Below, in pieces: positions 20,416 to 40,487 of a stretch of DNA of 64,000 nucleotides (positions are counted from its first letter, which is position 1; each line of letters opens with the position of its first letter). The position numbers and the translations under genes were made by a program. The DNA is from a virus. Its lineage: Duplodnaviria; Heunggongvirae; Uroviricota; Caudoviricetes. The stretch lies in IMG/VR virus record IMGVR_UViG_3300035544_000169. The stretch is one strand, 5' to 3'. The notes beneath the pieces were generated by a model that worked only from the letters and a program-made list of their open reading frames with translations, was not told the DNA's origin and did not search any database.

Positions 20416-23400
20416 ATGGCTGCAAACAGATACATAGAGAGGTATAAAAAAGGCCTCCAGCAAAGAGAAGAAAAAAGACAGTCTAAAATGGCCTGGTCTA
20501 AAACAAATAAATTTCTAACAGGTGCAGCCGCAATTACAGCAGGTGCATTTGCAGCCCACACACTTCACCCCAAAGGTATAATAGGAGCTTTAGAGAGTGT
20601 AGCAAAGCCCACAAATGCTGCCTTTGGAGCCTTCAAAAGCACAATGGATAGATATGTGTCAGGTTCCGGGCACGGAGTTTTAAAGGGTGTTGATACAGCT
20701 ATAAACGCTGTTGATGTATTTAATAATCCAAAGGGTGCAGTAGACCATTTTAGAAGTACATATAAAAGTATTGCAAAAAGAACAGACGACTTACATATAG
20801 ATATTTTAAGAAAACAGAAAACAAATGTTATTGACGGAATTAAAAAGGCATTAAAAAGAGATGCTATCAGCACTCAGGCAAATAAGAATTTAAATAAATT
20901 TATCGAAGATAATGAAGGCGACTTAGCCAAAATAGCCTCTGATTTTCAGAAAAAAAACCAGTACAGACTTTCAAAGCTAAGTTCTGGCGATAAAAAAGAA
21001 GTTAACTATGCACTTGCAAAATTAGACTCATTTAATGAAGCTAATAAAGAAATTAGAGATAGTGCACAAAAAATGATATTTGACAGTATATCAGGGGCTT
21101 CAGAGGCCAGACCAAAGAATGTAGATAATATTCAGGCAGATGCCTTAAAGAAAATGATGGATGAGATTGTAGAAAACCAGCAGTCCCAGAGTTCATTTAT
21201 AAAGAAAAAGTTTAATAATATTTTTGGATACAAAAACGCAACGGTGGATGACCTTTTAAATTATGGTGACGACTTTTTAGATGATGAGAGCAGAAAGTTT
21301 TTAAACACTTTAAAGATAAACCACGGTGCTGACTTTAAAAAGTTTGTAGTAGATGACAGCCTATACATGTACAAAGGTAAGGTTGTTGATTCCAGAAACT
21401 TCAAAAAGCTTGGCAGAAATATTCGCTCAGGATTTTCTGGTGGTATTTTAGGTCACTTAACTTACCAGAGAGACTTAATGGCCATGAATGATTTCTCTAA
21501 GAGAGCTGGAACACTGATTCGTTCAGGCTACAATGTACCAACACTTGAAGGCTATGGAGTTTTAGGAAAAGACGGAGTTTTAAAAGAGTCATTAATTTCT
21601 GTTGGAGATAACATATACAGACTAAATGATATGTCAAAACCTCTGGCTGAAGGCTTCCACCTAGCTTCAGGAAGGTACGGCTCTACTAAGAGATTAGTGT
21701 CAAGTATGTCTGGAGTTAACGCTCCTGACTGGAGTAATGAAAGGGCATACAATTGGCTTTTAGATGTAGGGGGCAAGAGACAGCCGGGGCTTTTAACAAA
21801 GTTTAAATCTATTTTTACAAAATCTAAAGACCCACTATATTTCAAAAATGAAATGAACAGGCTCTTTACAGTAACAGAAGATATGGCTCAAAAAATACAG
21901 TCCGGCACAGCATTATCTGTTCTACCGGAAATAGATTACAGAATGATGAAAGACCTAGAACAGTATATGAGACATCAATCATCAGGCTTTGGTCATGAGA
22001 TGTTAGAAAAGGTCCTTCGTGATTTAGATGGTACAGAAATCAGCTCAAAACTAAAGGGATTAAAATTTGATACAGAAGATGACCTTGTTGAATCATATAT
22101 TAAAGTTACAAAAGAGCATCTAGGTAAACAAGGCGCTAAGATGCCAGATGATACATCTCTTAGGGCAAGGGCTTATAATATTCTTAATACATCAACTCAG
22201 AGAAAAAATAAAAGAATATTTGCCGGAAACAAACTGAACGAAGGTAAAGACAGGCTCTTAAGAGATATCTCAGAGAAGGTAACTAATCTAAGGGGTAGTG
22301 ACAGAACCCTAGAGATTGCAGAATCAATGTATAAAAATAAGGAGATATCAGGGGCCCAATTTGTTGAAATAAATAAATCAGTTGCAAGCTTTAAAATAAG
22401 CGGTTCTATGGACGGCTCATCATTTGATGGAGCTGAAATCACTAAGATTCTAGCAGGCAAGAAAGACCCTTATGTAAGGCTTGCTATTGAAGATTCACTA
22501 AAAGAAACACACCCTGCTTTTGGCTTCGGAAGGGTTAAGGAATTCCAAGAAAACTTCCACGGAGATGTACTTCCGGTAAAGAAGTTCAACCCTAAGATTT
22601 TAAACGACTGGAAGTCAGTTATAACCGGCGGACGAAATGACATGTCCAAAGTTAATAAGGGAACTCTTTTAACTTACGGTATGATGCACAGACTAAATGA
22701 TATGGTAAGGCATTTTGATTTTATGCCTCTTGCTATGTCAGATGACAGTATGGGCTCACCTTTATCAACATTTGGCAACATTATGGCTAAAAGAGTTATG
22801 CCGATTTACGCTGGTGTTACAGCTTTAAAATATACAAGCGATTACTGGTCTGAAATATCAGGTAGTGGATACACACTAGAACAGCACAAAGAAAGAACAA
22901 AGGCAAATGCAACCTTAAGACTATCAAAGTTTAAAGATGCAACAGGCCTTACAAGTGCTTTCAAATTTTTTGATAGGGTAACTCCGGGAAATGAAGGTAT
23001 AAAGGCAAGTGTTAATAAGCTTCCTTTCATGGGACCTTTAGCTCCTTTAACAATAGGTATGGAAGCCCTAAATTCTGTCGGAACATTCAGCGGCAGAACT
23101 GAAAAAGAGTGGGTAGATTACTTCAATACAGGAGAGGACCCGGTCAGAAAGGGTAGGTACTGGATATTAGGTTCAACTCCATGGATGGGTGAAAGTATAG
23201 ACCACTACGAACCAAATAGCTATAGACAGGCTATGAGTCAGTGGGAATATACAGATACGGTTTACGGCTCAAGAGAAAATTACTGGGCTCACAGCTGGAT
23301 GCCTACTCCAACAGAACCTCTTGCACCAGTTAAACGCTTCGTGACGGACAGGTACTGGTTTGAAAAGATGCACTTAAAAGACAGACCATACCCTCTAACA

Positions 23401-26241
23401 GGAGAAATGTTTGACCCTAATACACCGTGGGGCACACTCTTAAATCCAACAATAGGCAGGATATTAAAACCACAAATTAAACTGTCTGCAGGTGCAACAG
23501 ATGAAGACTTAGAAAGAATAGAGAAAAATAATGCTTATGCCAAAGATGTAATAGCCAGATTTTCAGGTGGAGATTTGCAGCTTTCAACCTATATACCTAA
23601 ATATACAATGTCAACAAATGTTGGCGTTGCCACAGGTGGAGGAAGAATAGGTTCGGGTAATGTCATGGTAAATGGTGTTGCAGGCAATAAGGCAAATTCA
23701 AATGCAGTTGGTGTTCAAGGTGGTGGTCCGGGAGGTTCAGGAGCTGCTATTAGGCTTACTGAAAACCCTGAAAGCAGTGGTCTTGTAGTAAACGGCCAGA
23801 ACTACTCACTAAAAGATTTAAAGAATATAAACCAATCAATTATAGATAAATCAGGTAAGATAAGCAGGATAAACAAAAAGAACATTTTAAATACAGGATT
23901 TACAATGTCATATTACGAGCCGAGAGAAGAGGGCGAACTTGCTTTAGATGTGCAAAGCCCAACTGATATCGGCTACAGTATGGAAAGAACATTAGACATC
24001 TTCAAGGATATCACAGGTGCAAGAGGATTCTTAGCTTCTATGGTAACTGGAGGAGACGATTACGGTGAAGGTCAGGCTGTTTTAGCGACAGCATCTGATG
24101 CTTACGCTGCATCATCAAGGTTCTGGGATACAGGGCTTGGTGGCCGTGGTGGAGAGCTTTCAGAGATTTTCAGAAGATTTATCAACAAAAGACCTGGATT
24201 ATATAAGGTAATAAACGACATACCAAATACAATGCCCGGCTGGATGCCTGATAGGTTCCGCACTGGAGACCCTTATACAGAAGTAAACCGCGGCGAAATA
24301 AGGCTCCCAGGAGAAGCTTACGAGTCAATGAATAAGCTCCACCCAGATGAGTATGGAAGGTATGGAGCAGTTGATAGAGCAGCCATCTTAGCTGATATAG
24401 CACCATATTCACAGGAATATAAGCTTTGGTCTAAAATAGCTTCAGAACAGAATCTCTCACAGGAGGCCAAAGAGTTCTTAGCTCAGGCTAAGGAACAAAA
24501 AGAAGAGGCAAACAAAAAATATCATATGACACCATATAAGTTTTTGGGTCAGGATATAGAGAGAGAATCAGCTATTGTAGAGAAGTTTTTAGACTCCAGC
24601 CGCTTCACAGTTAAAGGTTCAGACAGAATATACCGCCTTGCAGGTGTTAACACCAACTTCAATGCAGAGACCGAAGAGGGCAAAAACACCCTAAACATAT
24701 TAGAACAGACAATGATGCCTGGAAGCGAAATAACACTTCTAGCATCAAAAGACAGCAACCCCAACGCCTCAACTCCAGCCGTTGTCTACAGTCAGGACTC
24801 AAATGTAAATAGAAGGCTTTTAGACAGCGGAGTTCAGGCCAAAGAAGAAGATGGGGCTATTGATACTTATGTAAACTTAGGCGTAGGAGGAAGGGCTTTA
24901 GGAAGGATATGGGAAGGAGTAGCACACGCCCCAATCCCTATAGTCCATAATAAATTCTTCAATGTACGCTCACCTATGGAACACTACAAAGACTATCAAG
25001 TTTACGGCAAAGAATGGCAGTCATGGAACGAGCCAGTTGACGACCTTTTAGTACCGTCATTCCAGAGTGCCTGGGCCAGAAATCCTTTCTGGGCTACATT
25101 ATCTGGTGCTACAGCAGGAGCTATAACAGGACTTCTGCTTGGAGGTCCCGGAGTTAGAAAGGCAATGAGTGGCTTCGGTGCGGTAGCTGCAGGTGTCGGT
25201 TCTATTGCTCGCTCACAGTACGAGTTGGAGACGGGTAAGGCGTGGATACCGGAAAGAAGAGAAGAAGAAAGAAAGATATGGGAATACTACGACCTCTTAA
25301 AGTTTGTTAAAAATAAGAGGCTATATAATAAATATGTAGACGTAGCTAAAAAAGAAGAAAATGTTGATGTTGAAAAGATAATAAGTGAAATGGAAGAGAT
25401 TGACGAAAGGCTAAAAAAGAAAGAAGAAATGCTTGAAGGCTTTTCAAAACACTTACTAAGATACGGCATCAGTAAAGAAGACACTGTCCAAAAACGAATA
25501 AACTCAGAGGGTAGGGTCGAATACAATTTAGTCACAGAAAAAGAGTTTATAGAATCAAAAAGAAAAGAAATACTTCAAGAATTAAGGGATACAAAAGCAG
25601 AAGAAGTACTTGTTGGCTTAGGCCCTTATGCAAGAATGGCGGTTAAATACAGACAGGAATACCGCTCTACACTATTTGGACTTGATGGAAGTTCAACTTT
25701 CCAGCAGATGTTTTCTGCTTTTCCAAGTAAGGATAGGGAATATTTACAGCATTTCTCTAAGGTTACAGACGAAAAGGAAAGAGAAGAAATACTAAAAATT
25801 GTTCCTGACAACCAGAAGAGAGCTTACAAAATTCTATGGGGTATGGAAACAGAAAAAGAATCTCTAATAGATATGTTCGGAGAGTATGCACTGCCAGATG
25901 AAAATTGGTTTGGCTGGAGGGAAGGGGCAGACCTTGAAGATTCAATGATAAAACTCATTGAAAATAATGGTTATGACCCTAAAGATTTCGGACTCTGGAA
26001 GGATTACACTGTAGAGGAAGAGCTAACACCAGCTCCAGTTGAGTATGGTAGGCGTTTCGACAGAAAGTCATCCGGATTTATCAGAACAAGATTAGAAGAA
26101 GTATTAACAGATTATGATATCAGAGATGTGGATATTAAAATAACTCCAAGAGAAGATAACAGTATAAATATAAATTTCGATATGGTACAGGATGTAACAG
26201 GAAAAATACAGCTTGAAATACAGAGAGCACTGGGGGGCTAG
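20416..26241 (+). CDS. Giant tape-measure-like/ejection protein with hydrophobic segments and degenerate SNase domain
   Basis: 1941 aa directly after chaperones; hydrophobic FLTGAAAITAGAFAA and FWATLSGATAGAITGLLLGG; SNase-like stretch at about 24565-24840. Confidence 0.7.
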   Translation: MAANRYIERYKKGLQQREEKRQSKMAWSKTNKFLTGAAAITAGAFAAHTLHPKGIIGALESVAKPTNAAFGAFKSTMDRYVSGSGHGVLKGVDTAINAVDVFNNPKGAVDHFRSTYKSIAKRTDDLHIDILRKQKTNVIDGIKKALKRDAISTQANKNLNKFIEDNEGDLAKIASDFQKKNQYRLSKLSSGDKKEVNYALAKLDSFNEANKEIRDSAQKMIFDSISGASEARPKNVDNIQADALKKMMDEIVENQQSQSSFIKKKFNNIFGYKNATVDDLLNYGDDFLDDESRKFLNTLKINHGADFKKFVVDDSLYMYKGKVVDSRNFKKLGRNIRSGFSGGILGHLTYQRDLMAMNDFSKRAGTLIRSGYNVPTLEGYGVLGKDGVLKESLISVGDNIYRLNDMSKPLAEGFHLASGRYGSTKRLVSSMSGVNAPDWSNERAYNWLLDVGGKRQPGLLTKFKSIFTKSKDPLYFKNEMNRLFTVTEDMAQKIQSGTALSVLPEIDYRMMKDLEQYMRHQSSGFGHEMLEKVLRDLDGTEISSKLKGLKFDTEDDLVESYIKVTKEHLGKQGAKMPDDTSLRARAYNILNTSTQRKNKRIFAGNKLNEGKDRLLRDISEKVTNLRGSDRTLEIAESMYKNKEISGAQFVEINKSVASFKISGSMDGSSFDGAEITKILAGKKDPYVRLAIEDSLKETHPAFGFGRVKEFQENFHGDVLPVKKFNPKILNDWKSVITGGRNDMSKVNKGTLLTYGMMHRLNDMVRHFDFMPLAMSDDSMGSPLSTFGNIMAKRVMPIYAGVTALKYTSDYWSEISGSGYTLEQHKERTKANATLRLSKFKDATGLTSAFKFFDRVTPGNEGIKASVNKLPFMGPLAPLTIGMEALNSVGTFSGRTEKEWVDYFNTGEDPVRKGRYWILGSTPWMGESIDHYEPNSYRQAMSQWEYTDTVYGSRENYWAHSWMPTPTEPLAPVKRFVTDRYWFEKMHLKDRPYPLTGEMFDPNTPWGTLLNPTIGRILKPQIKLSAGATDEDLERIEKNNAYAKDVIARFSGGDLQLSTYIPKYTMSTNVGVATGGGRIGSGNVMVNGVAGNKANSNAVGVQGGGPGGSGAAIRLTENPESSGLVVNGQNYSLKDLKNINQSIIDKSGKISRINKKNILNTGFTMSYYEPREEGELALDVQSPTDIGYSMERTLDIFKDITGARGFLASMVTGGDDYGEGQAVLATASDAYAASSRFWDTGLGGRGGELSEIFRRFINKRPGLYKVINDIPNTMPGWMPDRFRTGDPYTEVNRGEIRLPGEAYESMNKLHPDEYGRYGAVDRAAILADIAPYSQEYKLWSKIASEQNLSQEAKEFLAQAKEQKEEANKKYHMTPYKFLGQDIERESAIVEKFLDSSRFTVKGSDRIYRLAGVNTNFNAETEEGKNTLNILEQTMMPGSEITLLASKDSNPNASTPAVVYSQDSNVNRRLLDSGVQAKEEDGAIDTYVNLGVGGRALGRIWEGVAHAPIPIVHNKFFNVRSPMEHYKDYQVYGKEWQSWNEPVDDLLVPSFQSAWARNPFWATLSGATAGAITGLLLGGPGVRKAMSGFGAVAAGVGSIARSQYELETGKAWIPERREEERKIWEYYDLLKFVKNKRLYNKYVDVAKKEENVDVEKIISEMEEIDERLKKKEEMLEGFSKHLLRYGISKEDTVQKRINSEGRVEYNLVTEKEFIESKRKEILQELRDTKAEEVLVGLGPYARMAVKYRQEYRSTLFGLDGSSTFQQMFSAFPSKDREYLQHFSKVTDEKEREEILKIVPDNQKRAYKILWGMETEKESLIDMFGEYALPDENWFGWREGADLEDSMIKLIENNGYDPKDFGLWKDYTVEEELTPAPVEYGRRFDRKSSGFIRTRLEEVLTDYDIRDVDIKITPREDNSININFDMVQDVTGKIQLEIQRALGG

Positions 26242-26244
26242 TAA

Positions 26245-29200
26245 ATGTACGATTTTGATAACATGCCGGCAGTCTCGTCGGATTACAAAGAAGAAATGTA
26301 TAATAAATACGGTTTAAAGGTTACAAATAGGGTCTCTGACCCTCAGCCTTCCTTTCTCTTTCAAGTAAGCAGTCAAAGAAAGGCTAAGGCAAAGCTTGAT
26401 AAAGCTGCCAATAAAGCCGTTCAGTATTCGCACAACTTTGAAGAGATAAATGCAATATATAATGACCTTGGTAAAATAAAAAATGCCATGACAGAAAATG
26501 GTGTTAAAAGAGGAACACTTGATATTTTCAAGGATGTAAATGCAGTAACTTACGGCAGAAACCCACATAGAGCTATTAGGAACTGGCAGAAGGCTATCAA
26601 CACGAACTCAAAAATAATTGGTTTCGATATAGAGAGTTTAGGAGATATGAATGAAGGTAATATTTTTACACCGACAGAAATCTCCTTCTACTCTGCCACA
26701 ATGAACGGTGATGAGCTTTCTAAAAGAGCCTTAGAGCGTTCATTTATTGTAGCACCAAATAGAGCTTCTGTTGATAATATCAACGAGCTATTTGATAAAG
26801 TACAGGCTTTTTACGAAAACGGCAGAACTCCAATGCTCAGCGACTCCGAAAGAAGGACTCTCGGAGATTTAATCAAATACTCAAACGGTGCAGAGTTTGT
26901 ACAGAAAAATTCTATGACAGAACTAGGAAAAGCTTCTAATATGTACAAACAGTTTGTTACTGATGGAGGTCAGCTTAAAAGATTAAGCTCTGCAAGTTCA
27001 GGTAAAAAGATGCTGGCCCTAGCAAGAGAGGGTTTGGGCAACTTACAAAAATATGGTAAAGATGCAAGTAGTGTAGCTCAAAACTTAAGCTACTATCTTG
27101 CCGAACAGAATGCAAATTCAAATGCCTTCTTTATGGGTCACAATATAGAAAATTTTGATAATATAGGCCTGACAAAATTCATGCAGGCTAACGGCTTTGA
27201 TAACGGATTTAAACCAAAACAGTATATAGATACACTGGATTTAGCAAACGCCTTTTATTCCACACCGCTTGACCTGCAGAAATTAAGCAGTGTAGATACA
27301 GGGCAGTTAACAAGACTTAACTCAGGTCATTTAAAAATGGAGAACCTGACCAAAGTTATGGGTTTTGGAAACTATACTCACTCAGCAGCTGATGATACAA
27401 GAAAAGCTTTTAACGTAGTCTCAAACTTATTTTTCAGCCAAGAGGGCCTCGACCACATAAATAAAAACATCTTATCTAGTGGTGGAGATTTTTCAAAGAA
27501 CTTTAATATAAGCTCCCTAAAACCCGGAGACGAGCTGTTTTCTACAGCAGGGGCAATGGATACAGGTAAAGGTCCATTGAGTTTTGTTACGGCATTCAAT
27601 GACGGCAAAGAAGTAGTAGATGGAAGCAAATTTTACATAAGTTCACACACAAAATACAGATTTGTAGGAAGTTTTAGGAATAAAGACTCGGTCGGAGTTA
27701 AGCTGCAGAATGCTATGACAGGGGAAAATGTCTATGTCAATAAGTCAAACGAGAAGGAATTAAGACAGTTTATCTATTCCAAATTTGACAATGCTGCAAA
27801 GTATTCAAATACCGATATGCAGAGAATGTATATGAATACCAGAAACGATATCGCTCGTTCTAAGTTCAGACAGATGACAAACAATATCAGCTTTAAAAAC
27901 TACAAAAACTTACAGGCAACATTAAAGGCCTATAACTTAGAAAAAGCACAGGGAAGAAGTCTTTTAAATAACGAACTTGATGAAATATTCTCATATACAG
28001 ATAAAAGCGGCTCTAAAATTATAAGGGGCAACTGGAAAGAAAACTACAGAAGAATGAGGGGCAGACTTACAAGTGATGCTCCTATACTAGACAAGCTTGT
28101 TAAGGAAGTAGAAGCACTGCATGGTGGAGATAAAGAAAACCCAAACTACTGGCCGGTGCAAAAAAGACACGCAGCAGTTGTAAATGCCTATCAGGAAATG
28201 CAAAAAGATTTTGGAAAAAATAAAGATATTATAAACCTTAAAAGCAACAAGGCTTACGGAATAGACCTTCTGGGGCCAGATGGTAGAAACACAAGAATCT
28301 CACTTGCGAGAAAATCAAATGCAAGACGTGACTTAAGAAGACTATTTAACTATACAGAGTCAACAGCAGGAAGAAACTTCAAAACAGCTGACGGATTTTT
28401 TATTGAAGTTTTAGACAGCGTAAAAGACCATGCAAGTCAGTACCAGAAGAATATGGCCAACAAAGATTATGAGGGCTTTATGTACAGGCTTGACGAAATT
28501 ATAAGACCTATGGCTAAAAGTCAGGACAATGCCTTCACCCAGATAAATGCACTTTCAGACCTACTGGTTGATTATAGAGATAAAATACCGGGACTTAAAA
28601 AAAGCGTGATGGAAGTTGAGGGACTTGGAGCAAGAAATGCTTTCACAACCCAAAAGATGATGGATAATGTGGATACATATTTAAGAAAAGGTTTAGACTA
28701 TGCTAGTGGAATAACCATCAATCACGGCTTTGCTAAGGGTCTTTCAGGTGGAGCTAACAACAGTGTTTTAACTACTGTAAGGGCTTTAGATGAAGCTTTG
28801 CAGAAAAACTATATGGCACTGGGAGTTAAAAAAGAATTCGTTTCAAATATACCTACAATGGAAAGCTCGCTAAATAGCACCATACGCAAATTTGGGACAG
28901 CGTTCTCAAGCAAAGGAGATATCGACTTAGGCTTTGAGCTCTTCAACACAGGTACGGTAGAAAAGCCGCAGGTATCAATGGCTATTTTCAAGCAGGGCTC
29001 AGATGATGTGCTCACACTTGATGCATTAAAAGCAAATAAAAATGCTGCTATAATAGATATACCTCTGGTTAATGCAGACCAGTATATTCATTACGGAAAC
29101 CAGAAAAAAATATCACCACTTGCACTCCTTTATAGGGATAAATTCAGTGCAGGAGCCGATATAAAAACAGGAACCTCTTTCAGCTACATGATGCATGAGC

Positions 29201-32200: not shown

Positions 32201-33309
32201 CAGTATTTGAAACAATAGAATCAAATTCAGACTTTAAGGGCAAACTTGATGTCTGGGATACAAGGCAAATGACAAAATCAGAGCTTGAAAATTATGCAAC
32301 AAGGCTTTCTAAAGCTAAACTTACAAATGCAACTTATACAGGTATGATTAATAACCTGACAGATGAAATCAAAAGACTTGGTAAGGGTTATGCAACATCC
32401 GACAAAGAGCTTGTTAATTTTGCTTCTGGGCTTGGATTAATCACTCAGGAAGCTGTATCGGGTAAACACTCAATGACTAAAAAGTCCGGCTCATCAGTAT
32501 CAACAGACCAGATTATAAAATGGGTTAGAGAAGGTAAGTTCAGCAACTTTGAAGGCATGATGGACCTATCACCAGAAGAGATACAGGCGATGAACGATGT
32601 CCACTTTAGAATGAGAAAAGATGCAAATAATCCGCTTGAAAATGTGGCAAACAAGATATTTTTAAGTGAGAAAGTTGCAAGAGAAGTTAACGTTGCAGAT
32701 TATTCCATGATAAAAGATACAATGGTAGATAGTTTAGAAAAAGAAATGGCAAGTGTTTATACAACTGGCCCGGGCAGAAATATCTACAAGGGCAATCAAA
32801 ACTTATCAAAAAATGCTGGTCATATAGCTGAAAACGGAATCAACTATACAGGCAATGCAGCTTCGGAATTTTTAAAGGTAGCAAATACCAAAACTGCAGC
32901 AATTATGTCATCAGAAGTAGCACAGCATAAGGCTTTCGGTCCTATGGCGGCCGCAGGATTAGCTATAGGTGGAGCTATAATGGGTGCTGGAGCTGCAATG
33001 AGCACACAGCCTCTACCTATGGACTACATGAATAATCCGGCAATGAATGCCGTTTCTGGTGCAGGCTCAAGACAGCCCATGATGGATATGAACAGCATCC
33101 AGAATATAGTAAATAATCAGGGTATGGATATCATAATTAATGGAAACACAACAATAGATAAAGATGTAAACGAATTGGCAGGAGTTGTATCACAAAGCGT
33201 AGGTTCTGCAATGAATATACCGGTTAACATAAATGTCAACGCCAGTGATAATCGAGGTTCAATAAACCAAAGCTGGATAGAAGATAGAATTCTTGCTGCA
33301 CTTGAATAG
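26245..33309 (+). CDS. Single-chain two-barrel RNA polymerase (beta and beta' homology) with N-terminal DEDDh 3'-5' exonuclease; probably virion-packaged
   Basis: Exonuclease motifs GFDIES, GHNIENFD, HSAADD; beta motifs in order (NFGMYNSPGRDNMIQ, PGVNVSIA, ENQAIVSQSFA, GVTKLFLASEKVTVRNIVP, GVKVGPRHI); beta' motifs in order (HGQKYNRALSARFKGSGR, FRSPVIH, FGDSDGD, TQEAVSGKH). Confidence 0.88.
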   Translation: MYDFDNMPAVSSDYKEEMYNKYGLKVTNRVSDPQPSFLFQVSSQRKAKAKLDKAANKAVQYSHNFEEINAIYNDLGKIKNAMTENGVKRGTLDIFKDVNAVTYGRNPHRAIRNWQKAINTNSKIIGFDIESLGDMNEGNIFTPTEISFYSATMNGDELSKRALERSFIVAPNRASVDNINELFDKVQAFYENGRTPMLSDSERRTLGDLIKYSNGAEFVQKNSMTELGKASNMYKQFVTDGGQLKRLSSASSGKKMLALAREGLGNLQKYGKDASSVAQNLSYYLAEQNANSNAFFMGHNIENFDNIGLTKFMQANGFDNGFKPKQYIDTLDLANAFYSTPLDLQKLSSVDTGQLTRLNSGHLKMENLTKVMGFGNYTHSAADDTRKAFNVVSNLFFSQEGLDHINKNILSSGGDFSKNFNISSLKPGDELFSTAGAMDTGKGPLSFVTAFNDGKEVVDGSKFYISSHTKYRFVGSFRNKDSVGVKLQNAMTGENVYVNKSNEKELRQFIYSKFDNAAKYSNTDMQRMYMNTRNDIARSKFRQMTNNISFKNYKNLQATLKAYNLEKAQGRSLLNNELDEIFSYTDKSGSKIIRGNWKENYRRMRGRLTSDAPILDKLVKEVEALHGGDKENPNYWPVQKRHAAVVNAYQEMQKDFGKNKDIINLKSNKAYGIDLLGPDGRNTRISLARKSNARRDLRRLFNYTESTAGRNFKTADGFFIEVLDSVKDHASQYQKNMANKDYEGFMYRLDEIIRPMAKSQDNAFTQINALSDLLVDYRDKIPGLKKSVMEVEGLGARNAFTTQKMMDNVDTYLRKGLDYASGITINHGFAKGLSGGANNSVLTTVRALDEALQKNYMALGVKKEFVSNIPTMESSLNSTIRKFGTAFSSKGDIDLGFELFNTGTVEKPQVSMAIFKQGSDDVLTLDALKANKNAAIIDIPLVNADQYIHYGNQKKISPLALLYRDKFSAGADIKTGTSFSYMMHELNGEANSMIKAAQEGDFRRIEMIANGKIQKSLGYLSGSNKYVRDAEKMYSSTAEADFLKKGYVLFRGVFENQGEQVGLDGETLYPSKKFNMFADGSVQKMIKNKLGIDASLESTRGAHAVNQFFLSSIENRNFVNFGMYNSPGRDNMIQMRNKRTLSKKAIESIQDNINKAKGYSGLSMDPLLITQSEQFLRDTDNAFAKYPGVNVSIANVDELEGIEKLKNAFDKSDKYTMEGVFGKSPANFPSFWENQAIVSQSFADSLHSVNSYTKDYKLSDLDEGFINKVKRSLKDGGSGYRMGYMEQMGPDEIFKRVSRKDGVEHFITGFNINDGKISFKFEENFSTRAGVTKLFLASEKVTVRNIVPDEIMKAAFGEGVHVAGNINHAGHQGYGEVAEGLIKESINKINHSNIDRQIKQEAIQEVQDIVDRTFGLATTIKEEGKTGSGKFRLVINNNKAGFKHLMVAEGGIDQANLGLKNIDPRVANVVRNKGALSIKDLRTNLNNIKSFNLGLKDNILNLEAVLAQNSEDINFMSVGGYGKKGVKVGPRHIGVMMDKGYTEYARWLKDSVLEEAKQANRISSLPGTRGLNGALEGQSRAMELLARAARGEGAVPDGSRINEYTEVLEELSELREGGTQGQEKGLFSKSDLTKTVFDPEYRRRGKNGLYISLPEELEIEFGNEKTGRTRVKLNEIFLSDTAIEMSKKKNGEALYSLGEIGRAESDIFNAMREYNTAVQNSSQLAGDLSAREAKEKALRSMKTGIKNYYNAIFHQSTSSHGQKYNRALSARFKGSGRLNLQIMSPALEIADEVNRASGTTEEKISKVARKFDIDEKVIKKAYAGVKGAGYKGLDKSNAIYISRDRAKDMLKGLEKTDKKQFDNIMSGLEEGKGMPGMMFRSPVIHTESAIPVEYRIDDELDYDTVRISSTMAAAQFGDSDGDRVSFVMAYNKQGVRTNAKKMEEEVARVADEMRNTSYNSKGPWVKRNMVALEKDVTLGKKNYVDSVFETIESNSDFKGKLDVWDTRQMTKSELENYATRLSKAKLTNATYTGMINNLTDEIKRLGKGYATSDKELVNFASGLGLITQEAVSGKHSMTKKSGSSVSTDQIIKWVREGKFSNFEGMMDLSPEEIQAMNDVHFRMRKDANNPLENVANKIFLSEKVAREVNVADYSMIKDTMVDSLEKEMASVYTTGPGRNIYKGNQNLSKNAGHIAENGINYTGNAASEFLKVANTKTAAIMSSEVAQHKAFGPMAAAGLAIGGAIMGAGAAMSTQPLPMDYMNNPAMNAVSGAGSRQPMMDMNSIQNIVNNQGMDIIINGNTTIDKDVNELAGVVSQSVGSAMNIPVNINVNASDNRGSINQSWIEDRILAALE

Positions 33310-33320
33310 GGGTGTTTTTT

Positions 33321-36300
33321 ATGGCAAAGTACAATTACGCAACAACTAAAAATATAATAATGAAAGAAAATCTTCAGTCAAAGCCTGTTAAAGCAAAAGT
33401 CGTAAGAGTTCAGGATGGTGACACTATATATGTTACCAGTTCAGACCCTATATTTAAGGGTACTGAAAAAGAATTTGATGGCACTTATTCAATAAGACTC
33501 TCGGGTGTTCAGGCTCCCGAGGGCACATCTTTCTGGGATATGGAAGATGATAAGTCTGGCTTAAGAGATTATGATGATTATAGGTACACAGGTTATGAAG
33601 AAAAAGATGAGTTTTCTGAAGAGTCCTTTCTTTTTATGAAAGACTTACTTTTGGGTAAGGAAGTAATACTTGATTTAAGGACTAAAGAAAACGGGAGCTT
33701 GATAACAGGAAGGTTTTCACGGCCGATAGCAATTATCTTTGCTAAAATGGGAGAAGAATATGTAAATGCCAACGTTTCTCTTTTAACAAACTCTCTCGGG
33801 ACACCTTATTATGTTGAAGCTATGAACTTAAGTGACAGCGAGAAAAAAGAGTGGTCTAACCTATCTATTATAGCAGATATGCTGAAGATGGAAGAAGAAA
33901 CAGAAAAGATTGAAGAGGACTTAGATGAGTTTGTAGGTTCTTTTGACCCTGAAACAAACATCAAAATAGGTGACAGCATTCTTCCGATACCTCCTGAAGC
34001 TATTGTGGTAAACGACATAAATGAAGTCAATCCAACATCAGTCATTCGTGGTGGAAGCACTTTAATGTCCTCAACAGGCCACAGGCAAAAACAGGTACAG
34101 ATGGAGTTTTATTTCGACAGCAACAAAAGAACAAAAGAACTTATAAAGGGAAGAACCTATGAAGGTGACCAGATTAACGGCTTTCCTAAATTAGCTGCCG
34201 GTAAAAGCGCAGTTATCATGCAGGATGGAGAGGAATTTAGACCAGTATATTACATAAACGGATTGAGGCCTTTAATGGCCCAATTTAAATTGACACCTTT
34301 TTTACCTATAGAAAATGAATACCTAAACAAAACTCATGATATCTCAGCTTTAACACTTCAAAACCTATCAATCAGTAATGTTGAGGGATTTCCGGGACTT
34401 GTTAAGGCTACATTAATAGCACTGGAGTTTAATCATGAAGCTTACATAAATATGGTTGGACCTTTTAAAGATGTCTTCGACTGGGGTTTATTTAGATTTT
34501 ACTACCAGAGACTTATAGATGGTACCGGAATAAAGCATAGGGGTACAAAACTACCCTTTTACCAGAGAGACGGAGAGGATTTTTCCTTCTTTACAGTAGA
34601 TAGCTGGTCCTTACAGAAAAGAGAAAACCTTGAAGCTTCACTGGAAGATGTCTTAAGAGAATACCAGATAGACCTTGAAGAAGGCAGTACAGAATACGAA
34701 AAGCTAGTCTTTGAATATGAGGTGTTTACAGAAGCTCTGGAACAGTATGAACTTTTTAATGAGCTAAAGGGAAGTTATAACCTTAATAATGAGGATTCAA
34801 AAAAAGAGCTTTACCTAGAATACATAAGAAAAATTGCTGACAAACAGGAAAGAAGAAATGACAGCTTCAACGATGGGCTCTATTATGAGCCTAATATCCA
34901 CAACGAGCTTGATTTCTTGGAAAATGGAAGACTTAGCCGCTACGATAATCTAATTGAAGACCTTGTTAAAATTGAAGGCTATGATGGTGACTATTTCGAT
35001 ATAGCTTTAAGAAGCGAGAAAAATAAAGAATTTTTAATCAACTACTTAAAGCAAAAAGAAGAAGATAATTTAATACCAACAGAACTCGATTTAGTTAAGT
35101 CAACTGAAAAAGAAATCGAGAGGATAAAAGAGGCTAATTCTTTTAATATTAAAATCTCAAGAGACAGCTTTTTATATATCAAAGACAGAGTAATAGCCGG
35201 TGGTAAAGACCTCTTAAAAGAAAGAGAAGAAGCTGTATCTATGACCGACAATCAGATGGATGATTACGAGTGGAACAAACATTATTACAGCGACCTTCAT
35301 TTAAACCAAATAAATGTATCGATGTCAAACGGCGTAAATACCGTAAAGTTAAATATGCACACAAAACCAACTCATCAGTATTTAGGCTCAAAAGATATAG
35401 TTATTTCAACTAGCTTTGTCACAGATAACGAACATACATTAGAGAGCATTAACTTTCTTGCATCTCATACTAGTGCTATGGAGCTTAGATACAAAAAAGT
35501 TTTAGATAATCCGGTAATGAAAGTCCAAAACAATATAGTTGATATGTTTGGATTAGATGGTGCTTATATTAAAAATATAGAGACAAATACTGTACCTTCT
35601 ATGCCGGGATTATTCCAAATTGAGATTTCATTTTTCGGCTATATTGGTGCGCCAGGAGACAAAGACTCTCTATCACTTCAGTACCGTTCGGAGCTTGGTG
35701 TCGACGGAAAAATGGGTCACGATAATTTAACAGACTATTTCAATATGAAAGAGAGACTTAAATACATCAACCTTTATCCGGACCTTGAGCTTCCTAGATA
35801 TTCAGAGCTTCCATTAAGGCACGAACTATTTGATGCTAATGATGACAGCTTTGTAGACCCTGATTTTTATGCTCTTGATGTGCCAAAAGTATTTTCAGAA
35901 GATGTAATCAGGGCTTTATATGATGAAGATGATGCAGTAATTATCGGTAGAGACACAGAGGGTAATGCTGTTAGAGCTTTAGTTGATGATAAAGGTAATA
36001 TAAATTTAATTGACTCTAATATTCAAAGCGAATACAAAAGAGATTCCAAGCCAACACTTGCAGATATAGCATACGAAAAAGGAGATGTAGGCTACAATGA
36101 GTTAAGCGAGTTTATGGATAATAGAAGTTTGGATAGAAGCAACATGTCTTTTGTATCAGACAAAGAGCTTAAAAGCTACCTTGCCTCTGAAGATAAAATG
36201 GTAAGTAATGTTAAACATAAAAAAATAAAGATTAGTGACTTCTGGGAGTCATATGTTATTAAATGGCTTGATAGCACTGTTCAGAAAGATATTAGTGAAA

Positions 36301-39300
36301 TAGAAAGAATAATTGCAGCAGGTTTTATTGTAGGAAACTGGGATAAGGACTACATAGATGATGACTACCTGGAGTTTCCAAAGAAAAGCCTTTACAGAAA
36401 CAGCAGTGGAGAATTGGTAGATGAACTATCTGAAGCTAGCTATTATGGTGTTTTAAATTTAAATGGAGATAATTTAAACCAAGATGTTAAGAAAAAAATA
36501 GCTTCTAATTACAGGGCCAGTATACTAAAGTATGAGCTTGAATCTGGAAAAATATATGACATATTAAAAGAAAAATCTCCACAAATAAACTTTGACAGAA
36601 TCGAAGGCACAGGTGTAAGCAATCTTTATGAGAACTATTCTAAAAGAGAAAGTGTTGACTATATGTTCAAGATGCTTTCATACTTTTTAGTTAAAGGCAT
36701 CTCACTAAATGATATATCTAATTACGAAGGAGGTTATCCTGAGTCTGCAAATAATGTCAAGGAAGCATATTTAGGATTTGAAAAATCAGCTAAAAATATT
36801 ATAGGCTCTAAGGGTATTTATATAAACCCTACAGAAATGATTGATATGCTACCTAACTTTGCGATGTTAATTAAAAAATCTCTAGAATCTATTAACGGAG
36901 ATAATTTTGTTTTAACATCTGAAGGAACATACATGCAGTCAAGAAGAGAAGATGTTAGGTTTGCAAGTTCGTTCAACGACATGCTTGAGTATGACAGAAA
37001 AGGAAGGTTAATCAGAGCTTTTCCATCCTATTACATGCTCCTGATTGATGAGGGTAGAGAGTTTATGTTCTGGAAAATGCAGGATTTATTCTACCACTAC
37101 AATGGTGTACAGAGTATAGATGTTGTCAGAGATAAGAAGAACATATCAGATACATGTATGATTACAATGTCAAACTCAAAGGGCAGATTATCAGATGCTT
37201 CTGGTGGTTACAGAAATAAATACTATCAGGAAAAAGGAGTAATGGAGACTTTATGGTCTTTAACACCTTTTGCTGAATTTGAGTGGGAAAAAGCTAAGAG
37301 AAACTCAGAGTTTGAAAGCGTACAGCTTGCAACAGGTGCCAGGCTTCATTTAAGAATGGGCTATGGTTCAACACCAGATAAGCTTCCAACTGTATTCAAC
37401 GGAACTATAACAGAGCTTCAGCTTGGTGATACTATAACCTTTGTAGCTCAAAATGACGGCATAGAGTTAAACAAACCAATACCAGCATCTCCCAACGAAA
37501 AGACTGATTTTGACATATTTGGACAGCTAGATGAACCAAGAACTATAATCAGCAAGATAGTAGGAGATAGAGGCAACTTATGGTCTAGGTTTATGAATAA
37601 CATTTCAGGTAACTTACTCTATAATGAGAGTGCTTACGGAATACAGCATTTTGGAGAGCCCAAAAGGCCTAAGTGGTGGGATGAGAGTCAGTATTTAACA
37701 AAAAGACATCCAATAACTGATATATATATAAATCAAAACTCAAGGTCTAGCGACAAGATGGAAAGAGCAGTCAGGGATGAAGAAAGAACTTATGAGGTTA
37801 CACAGAACATAAACTCATCTCTTTATGAAAACAAAGACTTCTCTATGTATCTCTATGGTAAGACAGTATGGGATGTTTTGGAAACATGTGCTCTTGTAGC
37901 ACCTAACTATATAGCAGCAGTCCACCCATTTGCTTTTAGAAATACAATCTTTTTTGGCCACCCAAACTTTGATTTGGCTTATGACTATGAAGCTGAAATG
38001 GATGAAAAGGGCAACTATATCAGGGAAGAATCTAAAGAGGAAGAAGTTGAGCTTTCGTTTACAGGTAACGGAACTAGAAAAACCTTTGAACTAAGAATGA
38101 ATATAATTGAAGGAAGTCTTGAAGTTAGGGATGGAGACAAAAAAATAACAGATAATATCGACAAGATTGACCATAGATTAGGTCGTGTTATTTTCAGTAC
38201 CCCTCCAAAAGACGATGTAAAAAATGTAATTTTTACCTTCAAAACCTTGGTTCGAGGAAAGATAGAGCCGTTAAATGTTAGAGAAAAGTTAAAATCTTAC
38301 AGGCAGAACCATTTCTATTCAAGCTATTATGACATAATAGCAAATAATATTAGAGCTACAGAAAAGAATATGTACACAGCAGTTAAGCCTGTCCTTTCAA
38401 AAGACGGAATCTATAAAGAGCTTGATGAGATGTTTGTAGACACAGATATTTTTCCTGATAGACAGAGGTTAAAAAAGATAGATACTTCAATACCAACCCC
38501 TGATTTTGTCAAGAAATTTACAAACACCTTTCAGGTTACACCAGAAAACGCTGAGATAAATGCAAGAAGGTATGGGGCTGGAGCCTTAAAACAGGCAGTA
38601 GAGAATATGTACGACGGAGAGATAGTAGTTACAGGAGACCCTTCTGTTAAACCATATGATTATGGATACCTAGCAGATGTAAGAGATAGAATTTCAGGAA
38701 CCTTTGAAGTCTCATCAGTTGTCCACAGCTTAAATGATACAACTGGTTTTGTAACATCAATCAATCCATCACCGGTAGTTTCTGTAAATGAGGGCCTTCA
38801 ATACGACAAGGATTTTTGGAAGTGGACAAACTCCAAGTTCTCAAGTCTTTATGCTAACAGTGTTGTAGCAAGGCTTTCGACATACACAGCTTTAGCAAGC
38901 CTGAAAAGCGTTCTAGAATCACTAAAGATAACAAGTGCAGCTGGCTCACTTCTCCCGGCAACAAATGCCGGTATGGCAGCTACTAAATACCTTGACGTAA
39001 CAACAGACGCTTTAAAGCATTCAAATCTTGGTTACCTTCCATTTCTTTTAGGAAAAAATGTTTTAGAAAGAATAAAGGACCTCGGAACAAAAACAGATAA
39101 GTTTGTTATTTGGGTTTCAAGATTTTTAGATAATGCAAATAAAATGAGCGACATATCCAAGCTTGGTGGAAAAGGGCTTAAGAACGTAGACTCTTTGAGG
39201 AAGATGATGATTTCAGGTAAGTTTTCCAGCAGGGCACAAAAGATAAGTGACGGATTAAATGATTTCAGAAACGGTTATGTAAGAATGGGAGAATACCTAA

Positions 39301-40487
39301 AAACTGCATCTAGAAATGCTGACGATTTTCCCGGATTTATGAATGATATGAGAAAGTACAGCAAGCTCAGAAAATCCGGAATGAAGGTCGGAGATATACT
39401 TGACGATGTCAGGGTTTTTAGAAGGCTAACAACTTACGGACTTTCAAATGCCAAAGATGTAGCTAAGATACTGTCAGGCCCAATGTTCTTTCTCGTGACT
39501 GAGGTTGTGGAATTTGTAATAGTAAGCCACATCATGAAGTTTCTAAAAAATATGAGGGCTAATAGAGAAGTTCTTACAATAATGCCACTCAAAAGAGATG
39601 GCAAAGAATTTACGGCAGGACTTGAAGGACACAAGGGCTGTATCATAGGTGACGACCCAAGCAAGATGGATAAGTTCTGGGACAGCAGTATAATAAACTT
39701 CTTCATCGGAAAGTCAGAAGAGTCAATCAGTAAAGATGAGATGAGGCAGTACATGATTGACAATAGTGAGAGAATCACAAACTCTGCAAGCCTTTATGGT
39801 TCCAAACAAAATAGTGAAATGACAAGAAAAGTTATGGGAGTAACAAATATAGATGATGTTAAGGGAATCTATAAAGACTCGTACAACTTAAATTTCACTA
39901 AAGAAATTGAAGAAGAGGCCAAAGAAGAAGCTAAGAAAAGAGAAGTAGAAGATGCCGTTCATGTAGATAAGAAAAATAAAGACGAGGGAAAGAAAAAGAC
40001 TCAGGAGCTTAAGTCAATATACGATATCAAAGAAGATAGCAGAATTGGATGGTCCATGAAAGCTTCTCTTTTTGTAAAAGACAATCCTGATATTCTAGCA
40101 GATTACAAGGGGCACAAAGTTCACCCTAAAATAATAACACTTTTTGAATCTGTAAAAAGGTCTTTAGGCTCTACTAATGTAATAGCTCTAGTAGATGGAA
40201 AATCTTTCGGCTCCTATAATGAGGATAAAATCCTCTATGATAATGGACTTGCAATCAGATTTGAGCCAAGAACCGGAGAGATGGATATCAATGATACAGT
40301 AAAGATAATTAAGGAAGCAGCAGTTAACGGATTCGGAACAGTAAAGGTATTTAAAGACAACTCTGTTCAGGTTGATTTATTTCCTTTATTTGATAGTAAA
40401 AAGCTAAAAAGCAACACTTATAACAAAGCATTTGGAAGTGCCAAAAACACTGTCAACAATACTATTGACGACTGTTACGGAAGTTGA
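33321..40487 (+). CDS. Giant baseplate hub polyprotein: SNase, tube/Dit-like domains, gp27/gpD-like hub, amphipathic region, degenerate M15 peptidase fold
   Basis: VVRVQDGDT..IRLSGVQAPE; SIDVVRDKKNISDTCMITMSN..ARLHLRMGYG..VFNGTITE..TFVAQNDGIEL; YDGEIVVTGDPSVKPYD..SVVHSL; ATG at 33321 with SD AGGGGTG preferred over GTG at 33312. Confidence 0.78.
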   Translation: MAKYNYATTKNIIMKENLQSKPVKAKVVRVQDGDTIYVTSSDPIFKGTEKEFDGTYSIRLSGVQAPEGTSFWDMEDDKSGLRDYDDYRYTGYEEKDEFSEESFLFMKDLLLGKEVILDLRTKENGSLITGRFSRPIAIIFAKMGEEYVNANVSLLTNSLGTPYYVEAMNLSDSEKKEWSNLSIIADMLKMEEETEKIEEDLDEFVGSFDPETNIKIGDSILPIPPEAIVVNDINEVNPTSVIRGGSTLMSSTGHRQKQVQMEFYFDSNKRTKELIKGRTYEGDQINGFPKLAAGKSAVIMQDGEEFRPVYYINGLRPLMAQFKLTPFLPIENEYLNKTHDISALTLQNLSISNVEGFPGLVKATLIALEFNHEAYINMVGPFKDVFDWGLFRFYYQRLIDGTGIKHRGTKLPFYQRDGEDFSFFTVDSWSLQKRENLEASLEDVLREYQIDLEEGSTEYEKLVFEYEVFTEALEQYELFNELKGSYNLNNEDSKKELYLEYIRKIADKQERRNDSFNDGLYYEPNIHNELDFLENGRLSRYDNLIEDLVKIEGYDGDYFDIALRSEKNKEFLINYLKQKEEDNLIPTELDLVKSTEKEIERIKEANSFNIKISRDSFLYIKDRVIAGGKDLLKEREEAVSMTDNQMDDYEWNKHYYSDLHLNQINVSMSNGVNTVKLNMHTKPTHQYLGSKDIVISTSFVTDNEHTLESINFLASHTSAMELRYKKVLDNPVMKVQNNIVDMFGLDGAYIKNIETNTVPSMPGLFQIEISFFGYIGAPGDKDSLSLQYRSELGVDGKMGHDNLTDYFNMKERLKYINLYPDLELPRYSELPLRHELFDANDDSFVDPDFYALDVPKVFSEDVIRALYDEDDAVIIGRDTEGNAVRALVDDKGNINLIDSNIQSEYKRDSKPTLADIAYEKGDVGYNELSEFMDNRSLDRSNMSFVSDKELKSYLASEDKMVSNVKHKKIKISDFWESYVIKWLDSTVQKDISEIERIIAAGFIVGNWDKDYIDDDYLEFPKKSLYRNSSGELVDELSEASYYGVLNLNGDNLNQDVKKKIASNYRASILKYELESGKIYDILKEKSPQINFDRIEGTGVSNLYENYSKRESVDYMFKMLSYFLVKGISLNDISNYEGGYPESANNVKEAYLGFEKSAKNIIGSKGIYINPTEMIDMLPNFAMLIKKSLESINGDNFVLTSEGTYMQSRREDVRFASSFNDMLEYDRKGRLIRAFPSYYMLLIDEGREFMFWKMQDLFYHYNGVQSIDVVRDKKNISDTCMITMSNSKGRLSDASGGYRNKYYQEKGVMETLWSLTPFAEFEWEKAKRNSEFESVQLATGARLHLRMGYGSTPDKLPTVFNGTITELQLGDTITFVAQNDGIELNKPIPASPNEKTDFDIFGQLDEPRTIISKIVGDRGNLWSRFMNNISGNLLYNESAYGIQHFGEPKRPKWWDESQYLTKRHPITDIYINQNSRSSDKMERAVRDEERTYEVTQNINSSLYENKDFSMYLYGKTVWDVLETCALVAPNYIAAVHPFAFRNTIFFGHPNFDLAYDYEAEMDEKGNYIREESKEEEVELSFTGNGTRKTFELRMNIIEGSLEVRDGDKKITDNIDKIDHRLGRVIFSTPPKDDVKNVIFTFKTLVRGKIEPLNVREKLKSYRQNHFYSSYYDIIANNIRATEKNMYTAVKPVLSKDGIYKELDEMFVDTDIFPDRQRLKKIDTSIPTPDFVKKFTNTFQVTPENAEINARRYGAGALKQAVENMYDGEIVVTGDPSVKPYDYGYLADVRDRISGTFEVSSVVHSLNDTTGFVTSINPSPVVSVNEGLQYDKDFWKWTNSKFSSLYANSVVARLSTYTALASLKSVLESLKITSAAGSLLPATNAGMAATKYLDVTTDALKHSNLGYLPFLLGKNVLERIKDLGTKTDKFVIWVSRFLDNANKMSDISKLGGKGLKNVDSLRKMMISGKFSSRAQKISDGLNDFRNGYVRMGEYLKTASRNADDFPGFMNDMRKYSKLRKSGMKVGDILDDVRVFRRLTTYGLSNAKDVAKILSGPMFFLVTEVVEFVIVSHIMKFLKNMRANREVLTIMPLKRDGKEFTAGLEGHKGCIIGDDPSKMDKFWDSSIINFFIGKSEESISKDEMRQYMIDNSERITNSASLYGSKQNSEMTRKVMGVTNIDDVKGIYKDSYNLNFTKEIEEEAKEEAKKREVEDAVHVDKKNKDEGKKKTQELKSIYDIKEDSRIGWSMKASLFVKDNPDILADYKGHKVHPKIITLFESVKRSLGSTNVIALVDGKSFGSYNEDKILYDNGLAIRFEPRTGEMDINDTVKIIKEAAVNGFGTVKVFKDNSVQVDLFPLFDSKKLKSNTYNKAFGSAKNTVNNTIDDCYGS

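Follow-up and report, generated by a model that had tools for sequence, protein, structure and literature searches.

A predicted single-chain two-barrel RNA polymerase joined to an exonuclease in the tape-measure slot of a 0305phi8-36-like phage

Three giant genes occupy the tape-measure position

We analysed a 64,000-nucleotide stretch of DNA (the window) from a virus of the class Caudoviricetes (IMG/VR record IMGVR_UViG_3300035544_000169), in which three consecutive giant genes stand back to back, preceded by the tail chaperones and followed by the baseplate genes. They encode proteins of 1941 amino acids (giant 1, 20416–26241), 2354 amino acids (giant 2, 26245–33309) and 2391 amino acids (giant 3, 33312–40487). 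A first-pass annotation made from the sequence alone had placed three giants, spanning about 20 kb, at the tape-measure position, and the open reading frame (ORF) bounds agree with it exactly. Every large ORF of the window is on the + strand, as are all genes and domains described below, and the GC content is ~36%. Giant 2, the main subject here, is encoded downstream of the paired chaperones and upstream of the hub. From its N to its C terminus it contains a DEDDh exonuclease, an RNA polymerase core, a Gly/Ala-rich hydrophobic segment and a small conserved C-terminal module.

Giant 2 contains a predicted cellular-type RNA polymerase core

Using an exhaustive HMMER search, we retrieved giant 2 homologues as 14 cluster representatives, all of 2200–2600 amino acids. 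Conservation counts for giant 2 are taken from a 15-sequence alignment, in which identities range from 20 to 36%. Single-sequence Pfam, PHROG and PDB phmmer searches with the whole of giant 2 were blank, which points to strong divergence, and profiles and structural models were needed to interpret it.

The polymerase core is made of two halves. The beta-like half (residues ~1113–1540; 29581–30864) was delimited with VIA-align, an aligner independent of Foldseek, together with conserved residues. The beta'-like half, in which a long helix of the bridge type and a clamp-like part can be recognised (residues ~1586–2120; 31000–32604), was delimited with Foldseek, VIA-align and Pfam. Within the latter lies the putative catalytic DxDxD motif (D1918, D1920 and D1922; 31996–32010), preceded by R1880-x-P1882; all of these residues are invariant in the 15 homologues. 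In the beta-like half, K1340 is present in 15/15 sequences and K1333 in 14/15, while T1342, E1233 and Q1235 are invariant or nearly so. The alignment is consistent with a second, beta-type barrel bearing conserved basic residues, with K1333 and K1340 as candidate active-site residues.

A profile of residues 1060–2120 matched the N-terminal beta' subunit of the phiKZ non-virion polymerase (5.7e-6) and AR9 beta' (0.005), and HMMER aligned the giant 2 DxDxD motif with NADFDGD of phiKZ gp55 and with its counterpart in AR9 beta'. The Pfam family RNA_pol_Rpb1_2 was matched by four of the 15 family members (best E 8e-5) and the RdRP/YonO family by none. We rejected a YonO-type assignment for giant 2, as comparison with gp99 of phage 0305phi8-36 returned only a 17-residue metal motif.

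AlphaFold2 (AF2) produced a confident model of the core from the 15-sequence alignment (predicted local distance difference test (pLDDT) 79.3; predicted template modelling score 0.79). When this model was searched against the PDB with Foldseek, the top 50 matches listed were all RNA polymerase large subunits, nearly all of them beta', and at least 400 matches had E ≤ 0.001. With VIA-align, the beta-like half (model residues 54–481) aligned with beta subunits at Z scores of 12.8–16.1, including those of the phiKZ non-virion RNA polymerase (7ogp_C, 16.1) and AR9 (7s00_C, 15.6), bacterial beta (14.0) and RNA polymerase I (Pol I) A135 (13.7). The beta'-like half aligned with the largest subunit of Pol I (10.1), archaeal A' (9.8), RNA polymerase II (9.7) and Mycobacterium tuberculosis beta' (9.2), and also with the RNA polymerase clamp domain 3qqc (6.5). 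Domains of double-psi beta-barrel (DPBB) type aligned with model residues 715–904 at Z 6–7.8, and single-chain enzymes spanned both halves at lower Z (QDE-1, 9.9; P74-26 gp62, 8.7; P23-45 gp96, 7.2). Together, the profile, Pfam, AF2, Foldseek and VIA-align results identify giant 2 as carrying a fused two-barrel polymerase of the cellular beta/beta' type, predicted to be complete within a single chain and to be active. A look-up of residues 420–1060 in the ESM Atlas gave no usable match; this region may correspond to the N-terminal lobes of beta.

An intact exonuclease motif set precedes the polymerase

Ahead of the core, residues ~90–420 of giant 2 (26512–27504) form a DEDDh (DnaQ-like) 3'-5' exonuclease domain, identified by invariant motifs and by profile. 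D128, E130, D305, H379 and D384, which make up the Exo I DxE, Exo II D and Exo III HxxxxD motifs, are invariant in 15/15 sequences. A profile of residues 90–420 matched DEDDh exonucleases in the PDB (8e-8), followed by the PolC exonuclease, exonuclease I and RNase T; the match to Pfam RNase_T was below threshold (E 0.043). Judged by its motif set, the exonuclease is intact.

Downstream of the polymerase lies a Gly/Ala-rich hydrophobic segment (residues 2228–2257; 32926–33015; Kyte–Doolittle mean 1.63), which aligns with the equivalent segment of 0305phi8-36 gp146. The last ~95 residues (2260–2354; 33022–33306) form a C-terminal module that is kept in 15/15 homologues, with D2335 and W2344 invariant, and is shared with gp146 (7.6e-7) and with CDS0031 of Moorella phage MTATph1 (5.5e-8). 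The start of the exonuclease is likewise shared with gp146 (2.2e-6). The first-pass annotation of giant 2 as a DnaQ exonuclease, a two-barrel RNA polymerase and a hydrophobic helix is borne out by the invariant motifs, the profiles, the AF2 model and the segment at 2228–2257. In BFVD, a full-length structural match of giant 2 is labelled 'minor tail protein'. A complex prediction for the C-terminal module with three copies of hub residues 205–480, using window sequences only, scored 0.00, which speaks neither for nor against binding.

Distribution of the middle giant among relatives

We next compared the locus with its relatives. The nearest cultured relatives, found using tblastn, were 0305phi8-36, the Bacillus phages WH1, KLEB27-3 and Edson, MTATph1 and, through the hub only, Acinetobacter phage ME3; the order chaperones, giant, giant, hub is found in these cultured relatives. 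A three-giant layout was present in 0305phi8-36, WH1, KLEB27-3, MTATph1, ME3 and the metagenomic contigs L010, L012 and L013, and the synteny search recovered this layout together with an exonuclease–polymerase fusion in WH1, KLEB27-3 and the three distant metagenomic contigs. In local profile searches, giant 2 matched KLEB27-3 gp034 (2e-151) and WH1 gp095 (1e-107), both of which contain the exonuclease, the polymerase and the C-terminal module. The middle giants of the distant lineages L010 (P0017 contig), L012 and L013 each combine an exonuclease with a polymerase bearing an NR-x-P...AD-x-DGD-type motif; of these, L010 and L013 gave a detectable C-terminal module and L012 did not.

Other middle giants are without the polymerase. 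In 0305phi8-36, gp146, which is annotated in its record as a hypothetical tape measure and was found in virions by mass spectrometry, keeps Exo I, Exo II and the C-terminal module, while no polymerase was found in it (hhalign probability 0.1, no DxDxD). A hidden polymerase in gp146 was accordingly rejected after profile and hhalign comparison. The middle giant of MTATph1 (L003:12210–19566) is split by a transposase gene into CDS0027, an exonuclease with the full DEDDh set, and CDS0031, the C-terminal module; a profile search found no polymerase core in it. As the exonuclease also occurs in these polymerase-less middle giants, it is not a dedicated polymerase accessory and is more consistently present in the middle giant than the polymerase is. 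From these sequence comparisons, the polymerase looks ancestral and lost in some lines. One further metagenomic lineage (L011:5728–21832) has a giant 1 homologue of 2034 amino acids followed by ordinary-sized genes, without a middle giant or a giant hub.

A YonO/RdRP-type gene is present in 0305phi8-36 (gp99) and was not found in WH1, KLEB27-3 or MTATph1. In the few genomes checked, the pattern was complementary: the YonO-type gene occurred only where the middle giant is without a polymerase (0305phi8-36), and the embedded polymerase occurred in WH1 and KLEB27-3.

Weaker resemblances were seen further afield. The 1603-amino-acid middle protein of ME3, ME3_36 (L014:9726–14537), has a DxDxD motif (D-H-D-Q-D at residue 1217) and a marginal beta' barrel match (independent E-value 0.009); no exonuclease was convincingly detected in it. 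Two proteins of this phage (Acinetobacter phage vB_AbaM_ME3), which has a Gram-negative host, were returned by the BFVD fold search at E ~1e-6. In the same database, segments of large uncharacterised proteins from the Microcystis phages MaMV-DC and Ma-LMM01 matched the polymerase model (E 1e-4 to 5e-4), one of the matches being annotated with a PLD phosphodiesterase domain. Judging by such model matches, unrecognised polymerase-like cores may be present in giant virion proteins more widely.

Giant 1 carries a non-catalytic nuclease fold and giant 3 is a hub

By sequence, giant 1 is the orthologue of 0305phi8-36 gp145 (BLASTP 7e-90 over residues 731–1941), a protein identified in virions by mass spectrometry according to its GenBank record note. 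Its 28 homologues are each of ~2000 amino acids. Single-sequence PHROG, Pfam and PDB phmmer searches with the whole protein gave nothing useful; the family profile matched thermonuclease (E 5.7e-4), and the AF2 model was of moderate quality (pLDDT 67). In this model, residues 1379–1489 (24550–24882) adopt a staphylococcal nuclease (SNase)-type oligonucleotide/oligosaccharide-binding (OB) fold, which aligned with staphylococcal nuclease 1sta_A (Z 9.8, root-mean-square deviation 3.4, 108 residues aligned) and with the non-catalytic SN domain of Tudor-SN (Z 10.3). The SNase catalytic set, which we take to be the Ca ligands D21 and D40 with R35, E43 and R87, is not retained: the Ca-ligand and general-base positions vary among homologues and are mostly non-acidic. 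As the fold is present without conserved catalytic positions, giant 1 can be described as a degenerate SNase, and we regard this domain, on its sequence pattern, as a non-catalytic scaffold. Outside the SNase fold, the model gave no convincing structural match, and the conserved blocks there have no recognisable fold.

Giant 1 also contains a Gly/Ala-rich hydrophobic pair at residues 1557–1598 (25084–25209; Kyte–Doolittle means 1.0–1.3 over 19 residues), which is kept in gp145 in the alignment and is helical in the AF2 model, and a second Gly/Ala-rich hydrophobic stretch at residues 32–51. From its hydrophobic hairpin, giant 1 is a likely candidate for a channel-forming or tape-measure partner. 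The earlier description of giant 1 as a tape-like protein with hydrophobic helices and a degenerate SNase agrees with the gp145 orthology, the hydrophobic stretches and the SNase fold. A paralogous C-terminal anchor common to giants 1 and 2 was considered and rejected, as neither BLASTP nor hhalign detected similarity between their C termini.

Giant 3 is, by homology and position, a gp147-type (hyperplastic) baseplate hub. It matched PHROG 20474 (7e-173 over residues 642–1567) and, using tblastn, 0305phi8-36 gp147 (1e-34), annotated 'baseplate hub protein', as well as WH1 gp094, KLEB27-3 gp035 and the MTATph1 hub; whole-length Pfam and PDB phmmer searches with giant 3 were uninformative. Hardies et al. 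(PMC2147016) assigned gp147 a T4 gp27-like domain. The longest giant 3 ORF begins with GTG at 33312; the identical cluster representative in the collection has 2388 amino acids, which points to the ATG at 33321 as the possible true start.

At its N terminus (residues ~20–205; 33369–33926), giant 3 has an SNase-like domain. A profile of nine hub N termini matched staphylococcal nuclease (3e-5, over SNase residues 33–125), while giant 3 itself scored below threshold against Pfam SNase (E 0.014) and residues 20–210 had no phmmer match in the PDB; a PF00565 match is precomputed in two homologues. The equivalents of the catalytic R, E and R residues are kept. At the position equivalent to D40, a Ca ligand of SNase, giant 3 has Q, its two nearest relatives have G and more distant homologues have D. 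With Q at this position, the SNase catalytic set is incomplete in the source phage, and the domain may be a weak nuclease or a purely structural OB fold. The first-pass label of SNase plus baseplate hub is well founded as to homology. Nucleic-acid processing, which the same annotation ascribed to the giants together, is unsupported for giant 1, with its non-catalytic SNase fold, and for giant 3, in which one Ca ligand is missing. Towards its C terminus, giant 3 has a hydrophobic segment (residues 2048–2079; 39453–39548; Kyte–Doolittle mean 1.97). Other hub homologues (including P0050–P0079 and the P0043 contig) bear M23, NlpC/P60, glucosaminidase, SLT or Endonuclea_NS_2 domains instead of SNase, and this variety suggests that the N- and C-terminal additions are interchangeable enzymatic modules.

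Comparison with known phage polymerases

The closest precedent in organisation is gp96 of the Thermus phage P23-45, a tape-measure-fused two-barrel virion polymerase that transcribes the pre-early genes (Chaban et al. 2024, PMC10770324). Like gp96 and its counterparts in P74-26, G20c and TSP4, giant 2 has a single-chain two-barrel polymerase with DxDxD within a giant protein in the tape-measure slot, followed by a hydrophobic segment, and in both cases there are relatives without the polymerase part. The fold match to gp96 covers both barrels (8h2n_A, Z 7.2; 8h2m_A, Z 6.9). These values are below those for multisubunit enzymes (9–16) and QDE-1 (9.9), and there was no sequence-level match to gp96.

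The two systems also differ in several respects. The source phage is contractile-tailed, whereas P23-45 is a siphovirus, and a second giant (giant 1) stands beside giant 2. The giant 2 polymerase lies mid-protein, after a DEDDh exonuclease, while that of gp96 is N-terminal and no exonuclease is mentioned. The giant 2 core is much closer to multisubunit beta and beta' (Z 14–16 and 9–10) and has a part resembling the clamp (3qqc, Z 6.5); gp96, by contrast, is described as a flat enzyme without a clamp (PMC10770324). Finally, activity and virion presence have been demonstrated for gp96, while giant 2 is known here from sequence and model.

For both halves of giant 2, the phiKZ and AR9 polymerases (PDB 7OGP and 7S00) gave the best matches in sequence and in structure. 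Those enzymes are assembled from four or five polypeptides, whereas the halves of giant 2 form one chain inside a tail protein, and WH1 and KLEB27-3 have a single polymerase copy in place of a virion/non-virion pair. Compared with 0305phi8-36, the gene order is the same, giants 1, 2 and 3 matching gp145, the ends of gp146, and gp147, respectively. The difference is that gp146 is without a polymerase and that the YonO/RdRP-type gp99, encoded elsewhere in that genome, is unrelated to giant 2 beyond the metal motif. Like giant 2, the crAss-like and N4-like virion polymerases lie within very large virion proteins, thought to be ejected with the DNA; unlike giant 2, they are podovirus proteins outside the tape-measure slot. 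The crAss-like enzyme belongs to the other major two-barrel clade and was not among the top 50 structural matches listed, and the N4 enzyme has a T7-like rather than a two-barrel fold. A parallel with crAss-like and N4-like virion polymerases was drawn by the P23-45 authors (PMC10770324).

In the literature, for 0305phi8-36 Iyer et al. (PMC7824862) listed no enzyme other than the YonO-like one, and WH1, KLEB27-3 and 0305phi8-36 are not listed in the P23-45 paper and its supplements (PMC10770324). Our literature searches found no description of an exonuclease–polymerase giant, and those for tape-measure-linked virion polymerases led only to the P23-45 work.

Proposed virion delivery and early transcription

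Association of giant 2 with the virion is supported by the position of its gene, the mass spectrometry of gp145 and gp146, the module shared with gp146 and the P23-45 precedent. On this analysis, we lean towards delivery of the polymerase by the virion, with a role in early transcription. The source phage would then probably inject its own transcription enzyme, a strategy known in a few other phages and not in the 0305phi8-36-like group. The three genes would encode tail-lumen and hub proteins of a contractile-tailed phage, with giant 2 in the tape-measure slot, giant 1 as a channel-forming or tape-measure partner and giant 3 as the hub. The two upstream chaperones would help to build giant 2 into the virion; sheath contraction would expel it with or ahead of the DNA; and, after refolding at or inside the membrane, it would transcribe the earliest phage genes independently of the host RNA polymerase, like P23-45 gp96. 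Packaging, ejection, refolding, activity, promoter use, membrane insertion and contact among giants 1–3 are the steps that we infer here.

Injected polymerases allow the phage programme to start without the host enzyme and to escape defences directed at host transcription. They are known from the N4-like, crAss-like and phiKZ-like/AR9 phages, with fusion to the tape measure only in the Thermus P23-45 group. New here are the contractile-tailed lineage and the joining of a predicted one-chain, cellular beta/beta'-type polymerase to a proofreading-type exonuclease. The family includes the culturable Bacillus phages WH1, KLEB27-3 and Edson, in which the product is labelled only 'structural protein', and virion delivery is thus directly testable. 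Middle giants with and without the polymerase, the latter coinciding with a YonO-like enzyme in 0305phi8-36, offer a natural comparison.

Several points weigh against delivery and early action. Our literature searches found no proteomics of a polymerase-bearing orthologue, 'structural protein' in WH1 and KLEB27-3 is only a record label, and gp146, the one positional orthologue verified by mass spectrometry, is without the polymerase. The giant 2 polymerase is present once in each of WH1 and KLEB27-3, and neither phage encodes a YonO-like or T7-like enzyme, so it may act at a stage other than the early one. Once folded, a core of ~1000 residues should be too large for the lumen of the tail tube, so its passage is a physical puzzle and delivery would need unfolded storage, which is not known to have been demonstrated in any phage. 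The first-pass annotation had taken the charge of giants 1 and 2 as that expected for DNA-contacting cargo. Giants 1 and 2 are indeed basic (computed isoelectric points (pI) 8.41 and 8.98, compared with 5.2 for giant 3 and 4.3–5.8 for most neighbouring virion proteins), but the surplus of basic residues is slight (net charge +0.4 and +1.1, respectively, per 100 residues), and a basic pI is also usual in tape-measure-type proteins and not specific to DNA contact. Overall, the first-pass reading is partly supported, and its proposal of virion delivery with early transcription is, on our analysis, plausible.

Taken in full, that annotation would make the three giants a single, integrated, injected machine, with every nuclease-like domain active, a conduit through the membrane built from the hydrophobic helices, and giant 2 transcription helping to draw the genome in. 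Each giant does have a hydrophobic segment towards its C terminus, giants 1 and 2 are basic while their neighbours are not, the three genes are adjacent in all sampled lineages with a middle giant, a genuine nuclease domain (Endonuclea_NS_2) is found in some hub homologues, and the P23-45 authors proposed that transcription is coupled to DNA translocation through the tape-measure pore (PMC10770324). We nevertheless consider such a machine unlikely: the SNase catalytic positions are lost in giant 1 and a Ca-ligand position is occupied by Q in giant 3, MTATph1 and gp146 have the exonuclease but no polymerase, the C termini of giants 1 and 2 have no detectable similarity, and the L011 lineage, with giant 1 and no middle giant, shows that the trio is not obligatory. 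In addition, Hardies et al. (PMC2147016) judged polymerase-driven entry too slow for a genome of such size.

An active polymerase might instead serve outside the virion, its place in the tail operon being historical, or the protein might double as a tail component and a newly made middle or late transcriptase, with nothing enzymatically active injected. The gene does lie within a late-type structural operon, and the folded core would be too large for the tube lumen. Moreover, the single polymerase of WH1 and KLEB27-3, which have no YonO-like gene, and the non-virion YonO-like gp99 of 0305phi8-36 make a functional swap conceivable. Yet the same polypeptide has the exonuclease before the polymerase and the hydrophobic segment and gp146-type C-terminal module after it (the module being undetected in L012), this architecture is kept over very distant lineages, and P23-45 provides a case in which a fusion of this kind serves as a virion enzyme; we give a non-virion role slightly less credence even than the integrated machine. 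Least probable by far is that the polymerase-like and exonuclease-like regions are inactive relics serving as structural bulk of a tape-measure protein. The activity of giant 2 is only predicted, blank single-sequence searches of Pfam, PHROG and the PDB attest to its strong divergence, and giant 1 is proof that, in these proteins, an enzyme fold can survive as a non-catalytic scaffold. But the metal ligands, both DPBB signature sets and the five DEDDh residues are invariant at 20–36% identity, which is unexpected for relics and is not seen in the giant 1 SNase fold, and the gene stretch is near-identical in metagenomes of 17 studies.

Virion delivery with early transcription, the reading that we favour, can be extended to the group. 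The fusion of an exonuclease with a cellular-type polymerase in the tail would be an ancestral, widespread early-transcription device of 0305phi8-36-like giant-tailed myoviruses, with both enzymes cooperating at the entering genome end. We hold this extension to be doubtful. Bacillus and Halanaerobium-type anaerobes, and perhaps Acinetobacter, would be among the hosts, and the exonuclease would, for example, expose single-stranded template or trim transcripts. If true, such exonuclease–polymerase coupling would be without known counterpart among RNA polymerases.

Gene context and habitat

The surrounding genes are consistent with a contractile tail. Upstream of the giants lie portal, major head, sheath and tube-type genes; downstream lie a small spike-position ORF, a baseplate J-like gene (41956–42777) and large fibre-type proteins. 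Immediately before the giants are two paralogous tail assembly chaperone genes, encoding 123 amino acids (19386–19757) and 210 amino acids (19772–20404) and sharing a conserved block. The second lies directly 5' of giant 1, as in 0305phi8-36, WH1 and ME3, and its PHROG matches are all of unknown function. This pair corresponds to gp143 and gp144 of 0305phi8-36, described as a two-gene tail chaperonin by Hardies et al. (PMC2147016). The small ORF after the hub (40540–40965, 141 amino acids), taken from the ORF listing, occupies a P2 gpV-like spike position, its positional counterpart in 0305phi8-36 being gp148, a 'P2 gpV-like protein'.

Using the polymerase stretch (29581–32604), we found 81–100% of sampled words in DNA sequencing runs from 17 studies, which were oil-field, shale-gas, gas-well and subsurface metagenomes; no RNA runs were among those containing the stretch. 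Gene content and provenance identify the source phage as a large, uncultured, 0305phi8-36-like contractile-tailed myovirus of oil-field and shale habitats.

Further upstream, the intervals 11903–13417, 14029–16677 and 16744–19353 hold two sheath-like genes and three consecutive tube-like paralogues. The tube-like paralogues are mislabelled 'major head protein' by PHROG 9206, and their 0305phi8-36 counterparts are annotated as tail tube or tube paralogue; the sheath-like and tube-like arrangement recurs in that phage. A promoter scan found no enrichment of sigma-70-like sites relative to shuffled sequences. One perfect sigma-70 consensus (TTGACA, 16-nucleotide spacer, TATAAT; 12/12) lies at 20190–20217, inside the second chaperone gene and ~200 nucleotides 5' of the start of giant 1.

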